Of a DNA stretch of 64,000 nucleotides, positions 3,406-62,144 are shown piece by piece. Below the pieces are notes generated by a model. The model was not told the origin of the DNA. It saw nothing but the letters and a program-made list of their open reading frames with translations, and did not search any database. This stretch comes from Candidatus Micrarchaeota archaeon. GTDB lineage: Archaea; Micrarchaeota; Micrarchaeia; Micrarchaeales; CABMGC01. Each line of letters opens with the position of its first letter. Within the stretch, counting starts at the first letter, position 1. The stretch lies in contig JAJZIU010000001.1 of NCBI GenBank assembly GCA_021810455.1, forward strand, positions 4,613-68,612, given 5' to 3'. The position numbers were made by a program, and so were the translations under genes.

Positions 3406-3491
3406 TGCGCCAGCCGGGATTTGAACCCGGGCAGCGAGCTTTTTCCGTTGAAATGGGAAGCTCGAATCCTACCAGGCTAGATTACTGGCGC
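3406..3491 (-). tRNA. tRNA-Gly(CCC) with a 13-nt intron at the canonical 37/38 site
   Basis: The minus-strand read folds by hand as GCGCCAG-TA-ATCT-AGCCTGGTA-GGAT-T-CGAGC-[TTCCCA|tttcaacggaaaa|A]-GCTCG-CTGC-CCGGG-TTCAAAT-CCCGG-CTGGCGC-A. All four stems pair. The T-arm and acceptor resemble archaeal tRNA-Gly. No encoded CCA. The 5' end lies 8 nt after the stop of the upstream ORF. Confidence 0.75.
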
Positions 3492-5674: not shown

Positions 5675-5694
5675 TGCATTGAGATTCCTTATGA

Positions 5695-5745
5695 GTGATG
5701 AGACATTGCCTCTGACTTGCGTATGATGAGGATCTTTAGTACTGA
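5695..5745 (+). ncRNA. Candidate C/D box guide sRNA (in the leader of the histone-fold gene)
   Basis: C GTGATGA 5695-5701; 10-nt spacer gacattgcct; D' CTGA 5712-5715; 7 nt; C' ATGATGA 5723-5729; 12-nt spacer ggatctttagta; D CTGA 5742-5745. Box order is complete and spacing near-canonical. Only ~2 bp of terminal stem. No target could be checked because no rRNA is in the window. Confidence 0.55.
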
Positions 5746-5749
5746 TTCG

Positions 5750-18193: not shown

Positions 18194-19438
18194 TTGGAAC
18201 TTAGATTTTTAGGAGGAGCTGGAGAGGTAGGAAGATCTGCGATTTTGTTAAAAGATGAAGTAAATATACTGATGGACTACGGAATAAAACTCGAGGGGAA
18301 GGCACAATTCCCTCTGTTGCCAAAGAAGGTCGATGCGCTTGTTTTAAGTCATGCACATTTAGATCACAGTGGATACGCACCTGCATTATATAAGAGAGGT
18401 ATGCCGATGGCTTTTGGCACCGAGCCTACATACAAATTAGCTGAACTCCTCATTGAAGATTCAATAAAGGTTAATATGAAAAAACATGAAAGGCTCGGTT
18501 TTGGGAAAAAGGATATGAGAACTTTCTTAAACAGCTACTCGATGAGATCTTATGGAGAAGGGATAGATTTTAGAGAGCACACAATTACACTACATAATGC
18601 AGGCCATATTGCTGGAAGTGCAATAACGCTTATTGAGAATAAGGAAGGTAGAAGAGTTGCTTACACAGGGGATTTTAAATTATCTAAACAGACCTTACAT
18701 CACGGAGCCGAGATTATAGATTGTGATGTACTAATAACTGAATCAACATATGCAACAAGAGAACATCCGGACAGAGACGCATTAATAGCACAGTTCATAA
18801 ACAACATAAAAGAGGTTACTGAAAACGGAGGGACGGCACTCATCCCAGTGTTTGCAGTTGGAAGAGCCCAGGAGGTTCTAGCAATACTAAACAAGCATGG
18901 ATTGATGGATCACACGTACATAGACGGCATGGCGCTAAAAGCCACCAACATAGTCATGTCAACACCAGAATTTTTGAATAATCCGAAACTGCTTTCAGAT
19001 GCAGTTTCAAAAGCTCAAAAAATCACAAAAGCCAATGACAGAGGGAGGGCACTCTATGGAGGCAGTATAATAGTGACAACGGCAGGAATGCTGAGTGGTG
19101 GACCCGTTCTAGATTATATAACTAAGTTGAATAACAAATCAATGATATTCTTAACGGGATATCAAGCAGAGAATACTAACGGAAGGAGGCTTTTAGAAAA
19201 CAAACCACTCATAATAGACGATAAAAGCATTTTCATAAAGACGCCTTTCGCTTTTTATGATCTTTCAGCGCACGCGGGACAGGAAGATTTACATGATTAT
19301 GTTAAAAGAGCAAATCCAGAAACAGTTGTTTGCGTTCACGGAGACGAAGAAAGTACAAGTGCGTTTAAGGAATGGCTTCAGGGAGAAGGATACGAAGCTT
19401 ATGCCCCGAAGATGGGAGAAGAAATTACAATAAAATAA
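18194..19438 (+). CDS. Beta-CASP metallo-beta-lactamase RNase (aCPSF2/RNase J-like, no KH domains)
   Basis: LSHAHLDHSG (MBL motif 2), TESTYATREHP, SAHAGQEDL and VHGDEE. Homologs usually start just before the (M)ELRFLGGAGEVGRS equivalent, so TTG 18194 is preferred. The track ATG at 18128 overlaps the pilin gene by 20 nt and cannot be excluded. Confidence 0.8.
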   Translation: MELRFLGGAGEVGRSAILLKDEVNILMDYGIKLEGKAQFPLLPKKVDALVLSHAHLDHSGYAPALYKRGMPMAFGTEPTYKLAELLIEDSIKVNMKKHERLGFGKKDMRTFLNSYSMRSYGEGIDFREHTITLHNAGHIAGSAITLIENKEGRRVAYTGDFKLSKQTLHHGAEIIDCDVLITESTYATREHPDRDALIAQFINNIKEVTENGGTALIPVFAVGRAQEVLAILNKHGLMDHTYIDGMALKATNIVMSTPEFLNNPKLLSDAVSKAQKITKANDRGRALYGGSIIVTTAGMLSGGPVLDYITKLNNKSMIFLTGYQAENTNGRRLLENKPLIIDDKSIFIKTPFAFYDLSAHAGQEDLHDYVKRANPETVVCVHGDEESTSAFKEWLQGEGYEAYAPKMGEEITIK

Positions 19439-19807
19439 TTACTCTTCGTAATTTTCTTCTTCGCCTTCGCTGTATTCAGATTCCTCTTTAGAGGATTTCT
19501 TTGGAGCGCCCTCTCCTTTTTCAATTACTTCTATCTTCCCATATTTGCCAGTTGAAAGTTGAGGAGTTCCCCTAAATTCTCCAACATAACCATTGGTTAC
19601 CTTTACCTTATCACCAACGTTGATGTTGTATATATCATTACCCCAAAGAGATATTGCTATAGTGCCTGTGTCGTCCTTTAAAACAGCATTAGCAACATTA
19701 AGTCGTTTCCCGTACTTGGTTATTACTTCCTTTGGTTCTCCTTTCTCTGAGACTACTGCTTCGAGCTCAACATTTGATGAGCCTGCCTTTAAATCGCTTA
19801 TGTTCAT
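19439..19807 (-). CDS. OB-fold single-stranded DNA-binding protein (short RPA/SSB type) with acidic tail
   Basis: 122 aa. Single OB pattern (V.LEAVV.EKGEPKEV.....RLNVANAVLKDDTGTIAISLWGNDI..I.VGDKVKVTNGYV.EFRG..QLS) plus C-terminal EESEYSEGEEENYEE. Abuts the convergent RNase gene with 0-nt spacing. Confidence 0.72.
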   Translation of the reverse strand: MNISDLKAGSSNVELEAVVSEKGEPKEVITKYGKRLNVANAVLKDDTGTIAISLWGNDIYNINVGDKVKVTNGYVGEFRGTPQLSTGKYGKIEVIEKGEGAPKKSSKEESEYSEGEEENYEE

Positions 19808-34975: not shown

Positions 34976-36331
34976 ATGGCAAGGGAAAATGTGAAAAAAT
35001 CAAAATCTAAAAAGGTTATTGTGATAGGGGCTGCGGGTAGGGATTTTCATAACTTTAATGTGCTGTTTAGAAACAATAAAGAATACGATGTTGTTGCATT
35101 CACAGCAAATCAGATCCCATACATCACGAATAGAGATTATCCTGAAATCCTTGCTGGGAAAAGTTATAAGAAAGGTATACACATATACGACGAATCAGAA
35201 CTTTCGGGACTCATTAGAAAGTTTAATGTAGACATATCTGTGATGTCGTATAGTGATCTTCCTTTTAACCAGGTAATGCATATTGCGAGTTTGGTTAATG
35301 CTGCTGGTTCAGATTTTTGGCTTGTTGCGCCAAACAAGACCATGATAAAATCGAGTAAGCCAGTTATTGCAGTTTGTGCAGTAAGAACAGGATGCGGCAA
35401 AAGTCAGGTGTCTAGATATATATCAAAACTTCTGAGGGAGAAAGGCTTCAGGGTTGTCATCATAAGACATCCAATGCCCTATGGCGTTCTGAAAAAACAG
35501 GCAGTTCAGAAGTTTTCAGAACTTAAAGACCTAGATAAATACAATACAACTATTGAAGAAAGAGAAGATTACGAACCTCATTTGAAGAACGGGTTTGTGG
35601 TTTATGCAGGAGTAGATTACGGTAAAATTCTTAAAAAAGCAGAAAAGGAAGCAGACATTATAATATGGGACGGCGGAAACAATGACGCACCTTTTATTAA
35701 ACCAGAATTAATGATAACGGTCGTAGATCCTTTGCGCGCAGGCAACGAACTTAATTATTATCCCGGAGAGACTGTAGCGATGATGGCAGATGTTCTTTTA
35801 GTAAATAAGGTAAATTCTGCTAACAAAGCCGATGTTGAACGAGTTGTATCCAATCTGAAAGGAATAAACAACGAAGGCAGAATATTTTATGCAGACTCTG
35901 TGGTTACTGTTGATAATGGCTCTGAAATAAAGGGGAAAAGAGTGTGTGTAGTTGAAGATGGTCCAACAATAACGCACGGGGGTATGCTTTTCGGCGCAGG
36001 AAGTGTTGCGGTTAAAAAATACGGTGCCAAAAGTGTTGTTGAGGCTAAAAAATATGCAGTAGGAGAAATAAAGAAGACATTTGAAAGGTATGAAAAGCTC
36101 AGGTATGAATTGCCAGCAGTAGGTTATAGCAATAGGGAGATTTCTGATTTGCAGAGGACAATAAATAAGATGCCTTGTGATGTTGTCGTTTCAGCTACAC
36201 CAACAGATTTGAAAAGGTTAATTAATGTGAACAAACCAGTATTACAAGTTAATTATGAACTACAACCTATAGGGAGAGGTTTTGACAAAGAAATAGAGAG
36301 ATTTTTAAGATCTTTGAACAGGGGTCCGTAA
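34976..36331 (+). CDS. COG2403-type predicted GTPase / cyclic 2,3-diphosphoglycerate synthetase-like protein
   Basis: 451 aa. KVIVIGAAGRDFHNFN at the N-terminus, a P-loop-like CAVRTGCGKSQVS, and the size fit my memory of this family. Function not established from sequence alone. The last 10 nt overlap tRNA-Lys. Confidence 0.5.
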   Translation: MARENVKKSKSKKVIVIGAAGRDFHNFNVLFRNNKEYDVVAFTANQIPYITNRDYPEILAGKSYKKGIHIYDESELSGLIRKFNVDISVMSYSDLPFNQVMHIASLVNAAGSDFWLVAPNKTMIKSSKPVIAVCAVRTGCGKSQVSRYISKLLREKGFRVVIIRHPMPYGVLKKQAVQKFSELKDLDKYNTTIEEREDYEPHLKNGFVVYAGVDYGKILKKAEKEADIIIWDGGNNDAPFIKPELMITVVDPLRAGNELNYYPGETVAMMADVLLVNKVNSANKADVERVVSNLKGINNEGRIFYADSVVTVDNGSEIKGKRVCVVEDGPTITHGGMLFGAGSVAVKKYGAKSVVEAKKYAVGEIKKTFERYEKLRYELPAVGYSNREISDLQRTINKMPCDVVVSATPTDLKRLINVNKPVLQVNYELQPIGRGFDKEIERFLRSLNRGP

Positions 36332-36396
36332 CTCAGATTGGTCAGAGTGGCTGGCTCTTAACCAGCAGGTCGTGGGTTCAAATCCCACCGGGCCCG
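36322..36396 (+). tRNA. tRNA-Lys(CUU)
   Basis: Hand fold: GGGTCCG-TA-ACTC-AGATTGGTCA-GAGT-G-GCTGG-CTCTTAA-CCAGC-AGGTC-GTGGG-TTCAAAT-CCCAC-CGGGCCC-G, 75 nt with all stems paired. Followed by the T-rich TTTATGTTTTTATT. The 5' end overlaps the upstream CDS stop codon. Confidence 0.9.
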
Positions 36397-37182: not shown

Positions 37183-37257
37183 AGCGAGGTAGGGTAGCAC
37201 GGAGTGCCCGCCGGGCTCATAACCCGGAGAACGGTGGTTCAAATCCACCCCTCGCTA
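37183..37257 (+). tRNA. Initiator tRNA-Met (CAU)
   Basis: AGCGAGG-TA-GGGT...GCCC-G-CCGGG-CTCATAA-CCCGG-...-GGTGG-TTCAAAT-CCACC-CCTCGCT-A. The A1:U72 pair and three G:C pairs closing the anticodon stem are initiator hallmarks in archaea. Starts on the nucleotide after the tfe stop codon. Confidence 0.88.
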
Positions 37258-53028: not shown

Positions 53029-53147
53029 ACAATCGCCTTAACCTAAATTTCACGTAAAGTATATTATTCCTTGCAAGCAACGCGTTACATGTCTTGCCTT
53101 TTCAAACTTCAGAAACTCTTTTTAAGGCTTTCGTAGTATGTGTACAC

Positions 53148-54191
53148 ATGGAATCCACTAATCCGCTTGGAACCACCACGTTTCAACAACCGCAGGTCCA
53201 ATCCACCATATCCAATAAGCCACGACCAAGGAGAAAGCATTCGAGACGTCATAATAAACTAAGGCTTCCTATTAAAAAAATTTCAATAGCTGTAATAATA
53301 ATTGCTGTAATTGCAATAGCCATAGCCGACTTTGCTGGTTCTAACGGTATTGTAAACATAACTTACAACAAAACCGTAATGCTGAATGTAAACGGCAGTA
53401 TAACATTTGCTGTTGGTGGAACCGGAAAAACTGTACTCTATCTTGCATCTTCGTATAACAACATTTCAACATTTTATATAAGCCAGTATCCGGTATTGGA
53501 AAATCCAGTGTATACATTCACACTTACTCCTGGAAATACTGAAAACATAAGTTCAACATTTTCACAAAACGCAGACGTTCAGATAAGGCTAATAAACAGC
53601 GGATCTAATTCTGCACAAGTGGAAATAACTAAGGTGCCCGAGGGATTCTCTATACGTCCTAGTTTGATAAACACACTCTCACAAAATGCAACATATCAAC
53701 CTACAACTACTGTACCATATGCTTCAACTTCAGCTTCAACAACAACTGTAAAGCCTATCAACACCTCTACAACGGTATTATCTGATGTAAATCTATCTAA
53801 CATAGGCAAACTTATGCAAAATTTCGGAGTATTATATCGTGCTGGAAGTTCCTGTACAGAACAATTGTACAATACCACACTGATTCAATACAAGGGTATT
53901 CAACCAAAAGGCCAATTCTCTTACTACAACATAAGTATGTCAACACCTACGAATGTGAAAATCACAATTTCTAAGTCTACAGGCAGCAACTATTTTGTAA
54001 ATTATACCGTGCAATTGCCACGCGCGCAATTTTCAACTCCCTCTGTAAGTGTTTTGTACGATTCTTCAAGCAACAGTGTGATGAGCACTGTGTTCGGAGG
54101 CGCTTATCAGGGTCTTAATTATACGGCACTGAATCAGGAATACCAATTCCAAAGTGGCATAAGCAATGCATGTGCAGCTTATGTGACATAA
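53148..54191 (+). CDS. Membrane-anchored extracellular S/T-rich protein
   Basis: ATG 53148 (MESTNPLG...). Basic cytoplasmic stretch KPRPRRKHSRRHNKLRLPIKK, a single TM ISIAVIIIAVIAIAIADFAG, then a ~270-aa S/T/N-rich ectodomain with N-x-S/T sequons. Lies between the response regulator and kinase genes. Confidence 0.55.
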   Translation: MESTNPLGTTTFQQPQVQSTISNKPRPRRKHSRRHNKLRLPIKKISIAVIIIAVIAIAIADFAGSNGIVNITYNKTVMLNVNGSITFAVGGTGKTVLYLASSYNNISTFYISQYPVLENPVYTFTLTPGNTENISSTFSQNADVQIRLINSGSNSAQVEITKVPEGFSIRPSLINTLSQNATYQPTTTVPYASTSASTTTVKPINTSTTVLSDVNLSNIGKLMQNFGVLYRAGSSCTEQLYNTTLIQYKGIQPKGQFSYYNISMSTPTNVKITISKSTGSNYFVNYTVQLPRAQFSTPSVSVLYDSSSNSVMSTVFGGAYQGLNYTALNQEYQFQSGISNACAAYVT

Positions 54192-57966: not shown

Positions 57967-59716
57967 CCTTCGCATTGTTGTATGCTACTATCGCTTCAAC
58001 AAGACCAGCGTGTGAAAATAATTGAGGTACATTTCCTCTCGGTTCATTTGTTTTGCTATCTATGTGTTCTGGCAACAGGAGTAAATCGTTAGAATAACTT
58101 ATTATTTTATTTATTATACTTCTAGCTCTTTCTAGATTGCCCATCATGATGTGTACTCTTGCCAACCACGTATTTACTAAAACGAAAGGATTGGATACTT
58201 CTCCGTCAAAATCACTAACGTATCTGAGCAATAACCCATTTTTGGATACTAATCTGCTTTCAACAAGTCTAACTGTTTTTCTAAAAATTGGATTTTCAAC
58301 GCTTACAAAGTTATACAATGGCATGGTCAACAGTGTAGAATCTATTACATTCCCTCCATAATAATGAACAAATGTTCCTGTGTCCTCAGATACGCTATTA
58401 TCCAGTATGTCCTCCTTTATCTTATTGCTAGCCTCTCTCCACAAACTCTCTTTAGATCTGTAACCCATGCTCCCTGCAAGCATGCTTGCTCTGTCAAGTG
58501 CAACCCAGTTCATAAGTTTTGTATGCAAAACATGTCTCTTTTCATCTCTTTCTTCCCACATACTTATGCTTGGTTCCTTCCAAGATTTAATCACCCAATC
58601 CGAGATCGATTCTACTGCCCACCAATTCTCTTTTATGTAATCTGTATCCCTGCTCCTTGAAAAATAAACGTGCAGAGCGTTCATGAAGTCTCCTTCAGAA
58701 TCCATCTGCACCTGCAAATAAGCTGCATTACCAACTCTGACAGGCTTCGAGCTTCTGTATCCTGACAGCCAATCCAATGTTTCTTCGGCTCTGGGAGAAG
58801 TTCCATCTATTGAATAAAGCGGATGGTTAAAGCTCTTTGATGACGGATCTACCAAACTAAAAAGAAACGTTAGTATCTTGCGTGCTTTATATCCCATCCC
58901 AGCTTTTGCCAGTGCTTCAGCCGCATAAGCGGCATCACGCACCCACACATACCTGTAATCCCAATTCCTATCTCCACCCAGTATTTCAGGCAATGATGTC
59001 GTAGCTGCCGCTATAGCGCCTCCGGAAGGCGTGTAAGTTAATCCCAACATAGTTAAAAGAGACCTCTTATACGCCTTCGAAAATTCTTCAATCTTCTTCG
59101 CCTTCATCACCTGTTCTCTCCAATATCTTAGGGTTTTCTCCAAGGCATCGTATGGGTTGGCGTATACATACCCGACGTTGCTGAACAAGCCGTACCTGAG
59201 ATCTTTTGAATACATCAGAAACAGATATCCCTTTCCCGGTTCTACTACTGCCCTGGTATCACTTGTAAATCTGAAACTCCCTGATATCAAAAGCTCTATG
59301 CTTTCTTTAGAATTAGGATTTCTGAACACTCTTCCATTATTTTCTTCTTCGATTCCCGGATTCGTCAAACCATATTCAAATACAGGCTTAACATCTATGA
59401 CAAATGGGACTTCGGATTCGTATAATCTCACTATGGCAGGAATTCCTAATGGTAAAAAATCTGTAAGTTCGAGACTCCCTTCTTTTGATTCGAATCTGTT
59501 TTTTACTACCATACTGTCTTCTACATACTCTACACTATGTTCATAATCTGTCTTTGGTTTTACAGAAAAATAGCCGCTCTGATTACCGCCTATTATGCTT
59601 GAGAACACAGAAGCAGAATCAAATCTTGGACATGGAAACCAATCTACAACCCCTGATAGTTCTAAAGCAGAAGTTATTCCATTGGATAAGAACACCCTGC
59701 CTCTTTCGGATCTCAT
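57944..59716 (-). CDS. Glycoside hydrolase family 15 (glucoamylase/trehalase-like)
   Basis: 590 aa. N-terminal beta-sandwich start (LSNGITSALELSGVVDWFPCPRFDS) and (alpha/alpha)6 region motifs DYRYVWVRDAAYAA and WEERDE.. typical of archaeal GH15 enzymes. Confidence 0.82.
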   Translation of the reverse strand: MRSERGRVFLSNGITSALELSGVVDWFPCPRFDSASVFSSIIGGNQSGYFSVKPKTDYEHSVEYVEDSMVVKNRFESKEGSLELTDFLPLGIPAIVRLYESEVPFVIDVKPVFEYGLTNPGIEEENNGRVFRNPNSKESIELLISGSFRFTSDTRAVVEPGKGYLFLMYSKDLRYGLFSNVGYVYANPYDALEKTLRYWREQVMKAKKIEEFSKAYKRSLLTMLGLTYTPSGGAIAAATTSLPEILGGDRNWDYRYVWVRDAAYAAEALAKAGMGYKARKILTFLFSLVDPSSKSFNHPLYSIDGTSPRAEETLDWLSGYRSSKPVRVGNAAYLQVQMDSEGDFMNALHVYFSRSRDTDYIKENWWAVESISDWVIKSWKEPSISMWEERDEKRHVLHTKLMNWVALDRASMLAGSMGYRSKESLWREASNKIKEDILDNSVSEDTGTFVHYYGGNVIDSTLLTMPLYNFVSVENPIFRKTVRLVESRLVSKNGLLLRYVSDFDGEVSNPFVLVNTWLARVHIMMGNLERARSIINKIISYSNDLLLLPEHIDSKTNEPRGNVPQLFSHAGLVEAIVAYNNAKAKSSFRP

Positions 59717-59719
59717 TAA

Positions 59720-61174
59720 TTATCCCTTAACTACAACAACAGGTACATTTCTTGATACCATGCTTGCTATACCTGCGCTGTCTACTACCTCAACCACTTC
59801 GTCGACATTCTTATACGCCCACTCTGCTTCTTCACTCACAAGTTTCCTGGACCTTATTCTTATCTCTACTCCCTTTTTCTTTAATGTTTCAAAGGTACGC
59901 GATGCAGGTATCTCTCTTATTGCTTGATGTCTTGACATAACTCTTCCAGAACCATGGCAAGCAGACCCGAACGTTTCCTCCAGTGCATTCTGTTCTCCAG
60001 CAAGAACATAACTCGCTGTACTCATGCTTCCAGGTATCAAAACTGGTTGGCCTATGTCTCTGTACTCTTTTGGTACGTCAGAACTTCCTTTCGGAAAAGC
60101 CCTAGTTGCACCCTTCCTATGTACAAATACGCTTCTCTTTCTGCCCTCTATTCTATGCTCTTCAAGTTTCACTATGTTGTGTGCCAAGTCATAAAGTATG
60201 TCCATACCAAGTGAGTCTGCGCTTTTGCCAAAAACATCTTCAAAACTTTTCCTTACCGCATAGGTTATCATCTGCCTGTTTGTGAAGGCATAGTTTACTG
60301 CGCACTTCATTGCTCTGAGATACGCTTTCGCTTCTTTGCTGTCAACCGGAGCATAGCTGAGTTCAGGATCCGGCAGCTTAATTCCATGTTCTCTTCCATA
60401 CACTTCAAGAACTCTCAGATAATCACTGCAAATCTGATGTCCAAACCCTCTCGATCCGGTGTGAATCATGATTACGGCTTGTCCTTTGCTTACTCCGTAC
60501 ACATCAGCTGCCTTATCATCGTAAATGTTGCTTACTTCTTGTATCTCTAAGAAATGATTTCCTGCACCAAGAGTTCCTAGTTCGTGCAAACCTCTTGCCT
60601 TGGCAAATTTACTAACATCTCTAAAATCCGCACCATCCATCATTCCGTTCTCTTCTATTTTTTCAGAATCAGTGCTAAATCCAAATCCTTTGTCAATCAC
60701 GTGTTCAACTCCGTATGTGGCTACCTTCTCAAGGTCTTTATCATCAAAACCTAAATTTTTCCTACTGCCAACTCCACTTGGCACATTCCTGAATAGAGCA
60801 TCTGAAAGTTCACTTATCTTGCCTCGTATATCTTTTCCATCAAGATTTGTCTTTATTATCCGTATTCCGCAGTTTATATCAAAACCGCATATACCTGGAG
60901 ATATTATCCCTTCTTCAGCATCAAAGGCAACAACTCCGCCTACTGGAAATCCATAGCCTTCATGTCCGTCTGGCATCACCAAAACGTTGCCTACAATTCC
61001 TGGAAGTGCAGCCGTATTCACTGCCTGCTGTAATGTTCTATCCTGCTTCATCTTCAAAAGCATATCTTCCTTTGCGAATATGTCGACATTTGTGTTCATT
61101 GTTTGATAGTCTTCCTTTTCTATTCTAAACTTAACTTCTGATATTTTTCTGGTCTTTATTTCGGTTTTTTCCAT
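59720..61174 (-). CDS. rtcB: RNA-splicing ligase RtcB
   Basis: 484 aa. MPDGHEGYGFPVGGV, GFDINCGIR, GAGNHFLEIQ, HTGSRGFGHQ and HGSGR. Confidence 0.96.
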   Translation of the reverse strand: MEKTEIKTRKISEVKFRIEKEDYQTMNTNVDIFAKEDMLLKMKQDRTLQQAVNTAALPGIVGNVLVMPDGHEGYGFPVGGVVAFDAEEGIISPGICGFDINCGIRIIKTNLDGKDIRGKISELSDALFRNVPSGVGSRKNLGFDDKDLEKVATYGVEHVIDKGFGFSTDSEKIEENGMMDGADFRDVSKFAKARGLHELGTLGAGNHFLEIQEVSNIYDDKAADVYGVSKGQAVIMIHTGSRGFGHQICSDYLRVLEVYGREHGIKLPDPELSYAPVDSKEAKAYLRAMKCAVNYAFTNRQMITYAVRKSFEDVFGKSADSLGMDILYDLAHNIVKLEEHRIEGRKRSVFVHRKGATRAFPKGSSDVPKEYRDIGQPVLIPGSMSTASYVLAGEQNALEETFGSACHGSGRVMSRHQAIREIPASRTFETLKKKGVEIRIRSRKLVSEEAEWAYKNVDEVVEVVDSAGIASMVSRNVPVVVVKG

Positions 61175-61294
61175 ATAGCTACCTTCTAGTCCTTTTATAC
61201 GTATATTATCCCTTTACTCTCAGGGAAAGTATTATATATGAGTTAACGTCAAACTGTATATACTTATATATGTGCTTGATATTTACTAGATGTC

Positions 61295-61394
61295 GCAGGG
61301 ATGGCAGAGCTTGGTCAAATGCGGCAGACTCAAGATCTGTTGGCTTAGGCCTACGAGAGTTCAAAAATGCATTGGACACATCTCTCTCCCTGCA
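61295..61394 (+). tRNA. tRNA-Leu(CAA), class II, with a ~15-nt insertion (non-canonical intron) in the T-loop
   Basis: GCAGGGA-TG-GCA-GAGCTTGGTCAAA-TGC-G-GCAGA-CTCAAGA-TCTGT-[TGGCTTAGGCCTAC variable arm]-GAGAG-TTCAAA[aatgcattggacaca]T-CTCTC-TCCCTGC-A. Removing 15 nt restores a canonical TTCAAAT loop and an 85-nt class II tRNA. The exact junction is ambiguous within the A-run. Confidence 0.75.
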
Positions 61395-61418
61395 CATCTA
61401 CTTATAAGGTGTTGTACT

Positions 61419-62144
61419 ATGGCCAAGAAAATAAACAAGACTGTAAAAAAGAATCCTGCAAAAGCAAAGAACAAGTTTGTAGAAAAACTGAAAGGTTCAA
61501 AAATAAAGGACAAGGTGCTGTTCGACGTGCCTCATTATCCTCAAACTGAGGAGTTCACGAGCTCTGCTGCTTGCGCAATGATGGTGCTAAAGTACATAAA
61601 CCCCGATTTTAAGTTCAAAAAAGAGAACGAGTATGGCATTTGGCAGGAAGCAGTCAATGGTAGCGTATGGCATGGATCAAAGTACGGGCTGGCCTTTGCT
61701 TTGGCAAAAAGAGGTGCGAAGGTAGGCATAATGAGCAATACTAAGGATGAAGGTTACGACAAGAAGATAGCAGTATACGAAAATGTTAATCTGGATACTC
61801 TATCTGCTTCATTCAACGAGATAAAACAGAAAGCCTCAAACGCAAACGTTCACGAAGAACACTGGCAGGTTTCAATAAATACTATAAAGAAAGCCTTGTC
61901 ATCGAACTGCATTCCAATAGTTTTGATAAATGCAAACGTAATAAATCCATATCTTGATCCTTCACCACACTGGGTAGTGGTTAAGGGTTATGACAAGGAT
62001 GCATTCTATATAAACGATCCATATTCTGACAGCACAATAACAATAGATCCTGACGCATTTAAAACGGCTTTAGGATTTGAATCAGACATGCATATGGTGT
62101 ATGCTGATTCAAAACACTTTCTGGAACTGAAACAGAAACAGTAA
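61419..62144 (+). CDS. Peptidase C39-like (papain-fold cysteine peptidase) with basic N-terminal tail
   Basis: ATG 61419 is preceded by TAAGGTG. The track start at 61290 lies inside tRNA-Leu. TSSAACAMMVL (candidate Cys) and PHWVVVKGYD...INDP (His/Asp) resemble the Peptidase_C39_2 layout. N-terminal MAKKINKTVKKNPAKAKNK. Confidence 0.55.
   Translation: MAKKINKTVKKNPAKAKNKFVEKLKGSKIKDKVLFDVPHYPQTEEFTSSAACAMMVLKYINPDFKFKKENEYGIWQEAVNGSVWHGSKYGLAFALAKRGAKVGIMSNTKDEGYDKKIAVYENVNLDTLSASFNEIKQKASNANVHEEHWQVSINTIKKALSSNCIPIVLINANVINPYLDPSPHWVVVKGYDKDAFYINDPYSDSTITIDPDAFKTALGFESDMHMVYADSKHFLELKQKQ

Follow-up and report, generated by a model that had tools for sequence, protein, structure and literature searches.

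A tRNA-Leu(CAA) gene with a probable 15-nucleotide T-loop intron next to rtcB in a Micrarchaeota archaeon

The window (the whole stretch of DNA analysed here, 64 kb with a GC content of 38.7%) carries, at 61295-61394 on the forward strand, a class II tRNA-Leu(CAA) gene with all stems intact and 15 surplus nucleotides in the T-loop, which is 22 nt long as against the normal 7. The gene reads GCAGGGA-UG-GCA..UGC-G-GCAGA CU CAA GA UCUGU-UGGCUUAGGCCUAC-GAGAG-UUCAAAAAUGCAUUGGACACAU-CUCUC-UCCCUGC-A. The acceptor stem is GCAGGGA/UCCCUGC with the discriminator A73, the D stem comprises 3 bp, the anticodon arm is GCAGA-CUCAAGA-UCUGU, and the T stem is GAGAG/CUCUC; the variable arm UGGCUUAGGCCUAC, A73, U33, G37 and stems that show compensatory change jointly identify a class II tRNA-Leu. 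The 5' exon (61295-61364, +; tRNA positions 1-58) contains the 5' strand of the acceptor, the D arm, the anticodon arm with the anticodon CAA (61331-61333, +), the long variable arm, the 5' strand of the T stem (GAGAG, 61355-61359, +) and the T-loop residues U54-A58. This assignment is based on the sequence, on the cloverleaf that ARAGORN returns after excision of the insert, and on compensatory changes among 48 sequences. The 3' exon (61380-61394, +) consists of A59 and U60, the T-stem 3' strand CUCUC, the acceptor 3' strand UCCCUGC and A73; the gene does not encode CCA. Between the exons lies the putative 15-nt intron, AAAUGCAUUGGACAC (61365-61379, +), at position 58/59, where its deletion restores the ARAGORN call, where the orthologues have their inserts, and where one insert-free orthologue (L042) reads TTCAAAT. 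Due to a run of A residues, the intron can equally be written as 61366-61380 at position 59/60, with an identical spliced product, so that the approximate placement at 61366-61380 in the first-pass annotation is a valid notation equivalent to ours.

The interrupted gene escapes standard tools. ARAGORN, run on the unedited 64-kb window, reports no tRNA at 61295-61394, and the Rfam tRNA model has no match there, whether the cutoff is the gathering score or is relaxed to E<=5. After deletion of the 15 nt, ARAGORN calls a tRNA-Leu(caa) of 85-86 nt, with the T-loop TTCAAAT and stems of 7/3/5/3/5 bp. The first-pass annotation had described a tRNA-Leu(CAA) with intact stems and a T-loop insert, had predicted that excision would yield TTCAAAT and an 85-nt tRNA, and had suggested ARAGORN as a check; the reading of the sequence and the two ARAGORN outcomes, undetected when intact and called once the 15 nt are removed, agree with this description. 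In a specificity scan, ARAGORN was run on every version of the 64-kb window that lacks a single segment of 8-45 nt, wherever this segment lies; tRNA-Leu(CAA) was regained by 69 of these deletion variants. The scan produced just two other new calls, a 'His' tRNA at 53595-53713 and a 'Ser' tRNA at 58658-58783, which we reject: each appears in one variant, has mismatched stems and lies within an ORF. The T-arm with the insert is identical in 4 independent assemblies (ENA ERZ27236985, ENA ERZ27237285, JGI 3300039716 and JGI 3300033990), and an assembly artefact is therefore ruled out. UUG accounts for 20% of the Leu codons in the ORFs of the window, so the decoder, tRNA-Leu(CAA), matters.

In the intact window, ARAGORN and the Rfam tRNA model agree on just three tRNAs, Gly at 3406-3491 (-), Lys at 36322-36396 and Met at 37183-37257. 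The tRNA-Gly gene has a 13-nt intron, UUUCAACGGAAAA, in the anticodon loop at 37/38, with a bulge-helix-loop (BHL) motif in which U32U33C34C35 pairs with GGAA next to the 3' bulge AA|A38 and an inner helix h' is lacking. Thus, the tRNA-Gly and tRNA-Leu(CAA) introns share the 4-bp helix and the 3' bulge and both lack h', but the Gly intron is in the canonical position and is found by standard tools. ARAGORN labels this gene Gly(tcc); the Rfam alignment gives the anticodon stem CGAGC/GCUCG, and the anticodon is more likely CCC. About 8.5 kb past the right end of the window, the extended locus L091, taken from a contig of the same organism (ena:ERZ27236985:k141_355596), contains at its positions 577-742 a tRNA-Ile(UAU) gene, whose anticodon loop is interrupted by an intron of 14 nt, and then a candidate tRNA-Val(CAC) at 659-742, which overlaps the last 7 nt of tRNA-Ile (GGGCCCA, in which GGGCCC is self-complementary). 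This candidate is called by ARAGORN only after deletion of about 12 nt from the D-loop (e.g., 671-682); its position 7 is mismatched (A7·C66), its D stem comprises 3 bp, and its T-loop, UCCGAUU, is odd. If it is real, interruptions affect 4 of the 6 tRNAs seen in roughly 84 kb of this genome. Two further observations concern other parts of the window. Weak, sub-threshold Rfam matches to C/D-box sRNA families at 5692-5746 (+) and 19342-19538 (-) (sR5, 26.8 bits, and snoR125, 27.2 bits; E about 0.04) might represent C/D sRNAs of the archaeal kind. The 365-aa ORF at 53094-54191 (+) has no Pfam match at E<=0.01, and other assemblies of the same organism have at this locus a 347-aa gene with no Pfam family on record.

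Divergently beside the tRNA-Leu(CAA) gene lies an intact rtcB (59720-61174, -), encoding an RtcB-type RNA 3'-phosphate/5'-OH ligase of 484 aa (Pfam PF01139 on an identical product). The gap between the rtcB start (61174) and the tRNA is exactly 120 nt, the distance given in the first-pass annotation. Upstream of the tRNA, at 61264-61271 (+), there is a TATA-like box, TTATATAT, which spans -31 to -24 relative to the tRNA 5' end. Across 49 upstream regions, positions -30 to -27 are A/T only, the stretch from -33 to -24 is TTTWWATA-like and strongly A/T, and an A-rich stretch at -37 to -35 precedes the box. This box, conserved at about -28, is an archaeal TATA element, and its distance from the tRNA is the expected one.

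On the other side of the tRNA lies a gene for a 241-aa Peptidase_C39_2-like protein (61419-62144, +), delineated by JGI gene calls, homologue alignment and a ribosome-binding site. The alternative 284-aa ORF that starts at 61290 is an over-extension through the whole tRNA, and the true start is the ATG at 61419: the gene is called as 241 aa in two JGI assemblies, a conserved GGTG ribosome-binding site precedes this ATG, and the homologues in 48 loci lie wholly downstream of the tRNA, with the alignment reaching residue 1 of the 241-aa form in nine. The earlier judgement that the 284-aa start is spurious thus holds, but the ATG at 61290 is 5 nt upstream of the tRNA rather than inside it, as had been stated. 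The C39-like gene starts about 25 nt past the 3' end of the tRNA (61395-61419), with no T-run terminator in between, and the same is observed in the orthologous loci. Given the short gap, the conserved GGTG and the missing T-run, the tRNA and the C39-like mRNA may be co-transcribed.

To place this locus in an evolutionary context, we compared it with 80 species-level genomes containing the best 80 relatives of rtcB, which share 59-70% identity and are almost all from MAGs titled Candidatus Micrarchaeota, Micrarchaeia, Micrarchaeales or Micrarchaeaceae. These relatives assign the window to an ARMAN-2-like member of Micrarchaeota, and hence to the ultrasmall acidophilic archaea that the first-pass annotation had mentioned. 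The orthologues of the tRNA gene were located by nhmmer and a pattern search. A divergent tRNA-Leu(CAA) gene is found beside rtcB in 50 of the 80 loci, and in 49 of these it lies 94-274 nt upstream of rtcB. The subclade closest to the window retains the order rtcB / tRNA-Leu(CAA) / C39-like gene. The other 30 loci, among them those with the more divergent relatives of rtcB, mostly lack a nearby tRNA-Leu(CAA), and four of them have a truncated copy at a contig end. The adjacency to rtcB is conserved synteny in a subclade, which by itself is no demonstration of functional coupling. Many contigs, from different assemblies, end in or at tRNA-Leu(CAA), namely in L003 (1-60), L004 (1-56) and L005 (1-37), as well as in L009, L015, L022, L034, L046 and L062, likely because co-occurring Micrarchaeota have near-identical exons with differing introns and flanks, which break the paths of the de Bruijn graph.

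Nearly all complete orthologues (48 of 49) have an insert of 11-21 nt at the identical site, and the position of the intron is unmoved across family- to order-level divergence. The one orthologue without an insert, L042, reads GTGAG-TTCAAAT-CTCTC, which is precisely the predicted spliced T-loop. Its variable arm, GGCCATAGGCC, is common to the intron-bearing loci L013, L041, L052 and L077, so L042 looks like a case of secondary, precise intron loss. Among contigs of JGI metagenomes, scanned for the exons of the window with 0-30 nt allowed in between, there are 5 matches, all with introns of 13-16 nt; none of the 5 is an intronless allele with the same exons. In L032 (3667-3769, -), an intron of 18 nt contains a tandem 3' splice element, UGAACAA followed by GAGCAA, and the segment comprising the helix and the bulge seems to have undergone a small duplication. 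In a T-loop-anchored deletion scan that covered 86 loci and 720 kb, every match other than tRNA-Leu(CAA) could be traced to a normal, uninterrupted tRNA and was dismissed as an artefact (tRNA-Lys in L047, tRNA-Val in L040, tRNA-Arg in L074, and tRNA-Gly in both L064 and L094).

The alignment of the 48 distinct intron-bearing sequences, including that from the window, reveals covariation in the acceptor stem (7:66, AU/GC 30/18), the D stem (12:23, GC/AU 34/14) and the T stem (50:64, AU/GC/GU 18/16/14; 49:65, GC/AU/GU 42/4/2), along with three compensatory pairs in the anticodon stem and compensatory changes in the variable stem. By this comparison, the exons behave like those of a working tRNA and are under purifying selection. 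The intron loop drifts in length and sequence throughout the family, with a 4-bp helix, an AA|A bulge and A57/A58 fixed.

These fixed elements coincide with the predicted splice motif. In the minimum-energy fold of the window's T-arm, GAGA (49-52) pairs with U60-C63, leaving the bulge A-C-A59, and G53-U54-U55-C56-A57-A58 pairs with UUGGAC, closing a 7-nt loop. The central splice helix is formed by G53 U54 U55 C56 (61359-61362, +) and the intron segment GGAC (61374-61377, +), and is delineated by this fold together with the pairing in the family. It is flanked by the 3-nt 3' bulge A-C-A59 (61378-61380, +), seen in the fold and conserved in the family as AA|A, and by the outer helix h, GAGA (61355-61358, +) with UCUC (61381-61384, +). 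The outer helix is the T stem slipped by two bases, as a result of which the 3' bulge comprises 3 nt. All features of the pairing proposed at first pass, UUCAA with UUGGA, a 7-nt loop and a bulge on the 3' side, are present in the fold, with an extra G53-C pair.

Among the 48 sequences, the G53-C56 helix is formed in every one (alignment columns 66-69 with 87-90). The intron-side bases are GAAC, GAGC, GGAC, GGGC or GAAU, and none of the 15 substitutions on this side breaks a pair: A and G replace each other across from U, and C and U do so across from G. The fifth pair, A57:U (columns 70 with 86), is formed in 41 of the 48 and the sixth, A58:U (columns 71 with 85), in 25; because the G53-C56 pairs are always kept and the outer two are not, the conserved helix is exactly 4 bp, the length of the central helix in a bulge-helix-bulge motif. 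In the window, A57 and A58 are both able to pair with intron U residues; the 5' cut site would then be hidden within a helix of 6 bp. Immediately 3' of the conserved 4-bp helix, all relatives have AA|A59 and the window has AC|A59. The central helix is thus well supported by the comparison of sequences. A cut-site rule that assumes a 4-bp helix and places the cut, in each strand, after the second nucleotide 3' of the helix predicts 5' cleavage after A58 (61364|61365) and 3' cleavage before A59 (61379|61380), which makes 58/59 a well-supported position for the intron.

The slipped register of the outer helix is probable. Its pairs are formed in 97.9% of the cells of the 48-sequence alignment, it is the minimum-energy structure in 29 of the 48 family T-arms, and the (GA)n/(UC)n sequence of the T stem permits it; four sequences with the T stem AGGAG can form only 3 slipped pairs. 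A strict hBHBh' motif is not found: only the 3' bulge forms, and only with the slipped T stem. The 5' cut site falls within a loop of 7-11 nt and there is no stable inner helix h', so that the motif is the relaxed hBH, or BHL, form rather than a strict bulge-helix-bulge. The outer helix, 3-nt bulge, 4-bp helix and loop of this relaxed form are all present in the window, as they are in the 29 T-arms. The relaxed character noted in the first-pass annotation is accordingly retained in its BHL form, but its 5-bp helix with a larger bulge gives way, on the family data, to the more regular combination of the 4-bp G53-C56:GGAC helix with a 3-nt bulge.

The main competing reading retains the same intron and the same product but assigns the outer helix to the T stem in its normal register (49-53:61-65) and the central helix to U54-A57 paired with UUGG/UGAA, with a 5-nt bulge and cleavage at 59/60. 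The normal T stem is 100% paired in the 48 sequences and includes two covarying pairs; in 18 of the 48 minimum-energy folds of the T-arms, positions 49-52 are in the normal register with a 5-nt bulge; and the published T-loop introns of ARMAN-2 are annotated at 59/60. RNAalifold, applied de novo to the 48-sequence alignment, likewise retains the normal T stem, in a structure that mis-pairs the D and variable regions, does not recover the intron helix and is thus uninformative on the splice motif. However, under this reading, the A57 pair is broken in 7 of the 48 sequences, leaving a 3-bp central helix in these, whereas the G53 pair is never broken and has only C or U as the partner. The 5-nt bulge exceeds the range of 1-4 nt quoted for relaxed motifs (PMC3239211). 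Furthermore, the first intron base is U in 16 species, so that a cut at 59/60 would make position 59 either A or U, whereas a cut at 58/59 leaves A59 invariant. We consider the 59/60 reading unlikely, albeit with a modest chance of being correct.

We searched for the enzyme that would make these cuts. Pfam identifies no endonuclease among ten ORFs of 365-451 aa, and neither PF01974 nor PF02778 occurs among the genes called in the 10 kb added to either end of the window. EndA is likewise not found by a motif search and tblastn in the window, in loci L001-L085 or in the extended loci L091, L092 and L094. The tblastn query, M. jannaschii EndA, matches PDB 1a79 at E 8e-111 and the ARMAN-2 EndA 4fz2 at 3e-34; its best match in the searched DNA, with E 0.65, falls within the C39-like gene and is due to chance. 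The presence of at least two BHL-type introns in the window (tRNA-Leu and tRNA-Gly) lends indirect support to the existence of a broad-specificity endonuclease in this genome. The association of relaxed-motif introns with broad-specificity enzymes in ultrasmall acidophilic archaea, to which the first-pass annotation referred, is in line with the cleavage of a 13-nt T-loop BHL intron by an ε2 enzyme (PMC3239211, PMC3488258).

Three other explanations bear on the function of the gene rather than on the position of the cuts. The first one is that rtcB and tRNA-Leu(CAA) form a functional unit, with shared bidirectional control and the supply of the ligase tied to its substrate, or that the intron is retained in evolution because it has a role of its own, possibly in blocking the tRNA 3' half as an integration site or in timing the modification of the T-loop; we give such scenarios only a slight chance. 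It is even less probable that the gene is a pseudogene inactivated by the 15-nt insertion, with UUG decoded by another tRNA-Leu. The failure of ARAGORN and the Rfam tRNA model to call the gene would fit this view, and tRNA-Leu(UAA) could, in principle, read UUG. However, an insert at one site in 48 of the 49 complete orthologues, purifying selection on the exons with compensatory changes, and the conservation of the pairing segment, the bulge and the promoter are not what decay would be expected to produce. Finally, that the insert remains in a mature tRNA with a 22-nt T-loop and an internal hairpin is barely credible, because such an insert would sequester G53-C56, on which the folding of the T-loop and its contact with the D-loop depend, because its length (11-21 nt) and loop sequence drift with only the splice-motif elements conserved, and because it has been exactly removed in one lineage (L042).

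Taken together, the comparative data make it very probable that this is a functional, expressed tRNA-Leu(CAA) gene of Micrarchaeota with a 15-nt T-loop intron of the archaeal endonuclease type that has a BHL motif and is cut at 58/59. The gene, the motif, the conservation of both, the promoter box and the presence of rtcB are directly seen in the sequences; that the precursor is cleaved, where precisely the cuts fall and which kind of endonuclease makes them are inferred. Under this scenario, the precursor would be transcribed from the conserved promoter, and the intron segment GGAC would pair with G53-U54-U55-C56 to form the central helix, sequestering G53-C56. The 3-nt 3' bulge A-C-A59 would be closed by the slipped T stem GAGA:UCUC, and the 5' cut site would be located in the loop, two nucleotides beyond the central helix. 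A broad-specificity splicing endonuclease, most likely of the ε2 type known from ARMAN-2, would then cut after A58 and before A59, and RtcB would join the resulting 2',3'-cyclic phosphate and 5'-OH ends. The T stem would resume its normal register, yielding the T-loop UUCAAAU, and the 85-nt tRNA would subsequently receive CCA.

The T-loop intron type is already documented biochemically in this phylum, and the value of the gene is mainly practical. Because ARAGORN and the Rfam tRNA model miss it, the UUG-decoding tRNA-Leu(CAA) seems to be absent, and the missed tRNA has let a gene caller stretch a protein ORF across it. The same error will recur in many Micrarchaeota MAGs in which this tRNA lies beside rtcB, and can distort estimates of completeness and codon capacity. 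In addition, the family of 48 sequences amounts to a natural mutagenesis series for a BHL substrate that could guide studies on the substrates of ε2 endonucleases.

The closest known system is that of ARMAN-2 (Candidatus Micrarchaeum acidiphilum), where pre-tRNA-Cys(GCA) contains a 13-nt intron at 59/60 with an hBH (BHL) motif (Fujishima et al. 2011, PMC3239211). The ε2 EndA of ARMAN-2 cleaves this T-loop BHL intron in vitro (PMC3239211), and the ARMAN-specific loop lysine of the enzyme is required for cleavage (PMC3239211; PMC3488258; Miyata et al. 2025, PMC12397907). In contrast, according to Hirata et al. 2012 (PMC3488258), the narrow-specificity α'2 enzyme of A. fulgidus has hardly any activity on the T-loop intron unless the ARMAN-specific loop is added to this enzyme. 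In the crystal structure of the ARMAN-2 endonuclease with RNA, as described in the supplement to PMC12397907, the bulges are A13-N14-A15 with the scissile bond after N14; the AA|A bulge of the tRNA-Leu family and its predicted cut position match this A-N-A bulge and its scissile bond. The tRNA-Leu(CAA) and ARMAN-2 tRNA-Cys introns come from the same phylum, are both short, and are both located in the T-loop within a relaxed hBH/BHL motif; the ARMAN-2 intron needs an endonuclease of broad specificity, as that of tRNA-Leu(CAA) presumably does. The differences are that the present gene encodes a class II tRNA, Leu(CAA), and that comparative data point to cuts at 58/59 and a slipped T stem. In ARMAN-2 pre-tRNA-Pro(GGG), the T-loop is interrupted twice, at 53/54 and 59/60 (PMC3239211), which makes it another case of T-loop interruption in Micrarchaeota; its two introns together form a strict hBHBh' motif, whereas tRNA-Leu(CAA) has a single intron with a BHL motif.

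Outside this phylum, the non-canonical tRNA introns of Crenarchaeota (Thermoproteales, Aeropyrum pernix) and Nanoarchaeota are cut by (αβ)2 endonucleases (PMC4090602; PMC3241643), and the known sites of archaeal tRNA introns include 53/54, 56/57 and 59/60 (PMC4090602). These introns resemble that of tRNA-Leu(CAA) in such positions and in their relaxed HBh'/hBH motifs, which co-occur with a broad-specificity enzyme, but belong to other phyla with a different enzyme architecture, and the split and permuted tRNAs of those archaea are not seen here. By the tests applied here, the tRNA-Leu(CAA) intron belongs to the relaxed BHL class already characterized in Micrarchaeota, and reveals no new mechanism.
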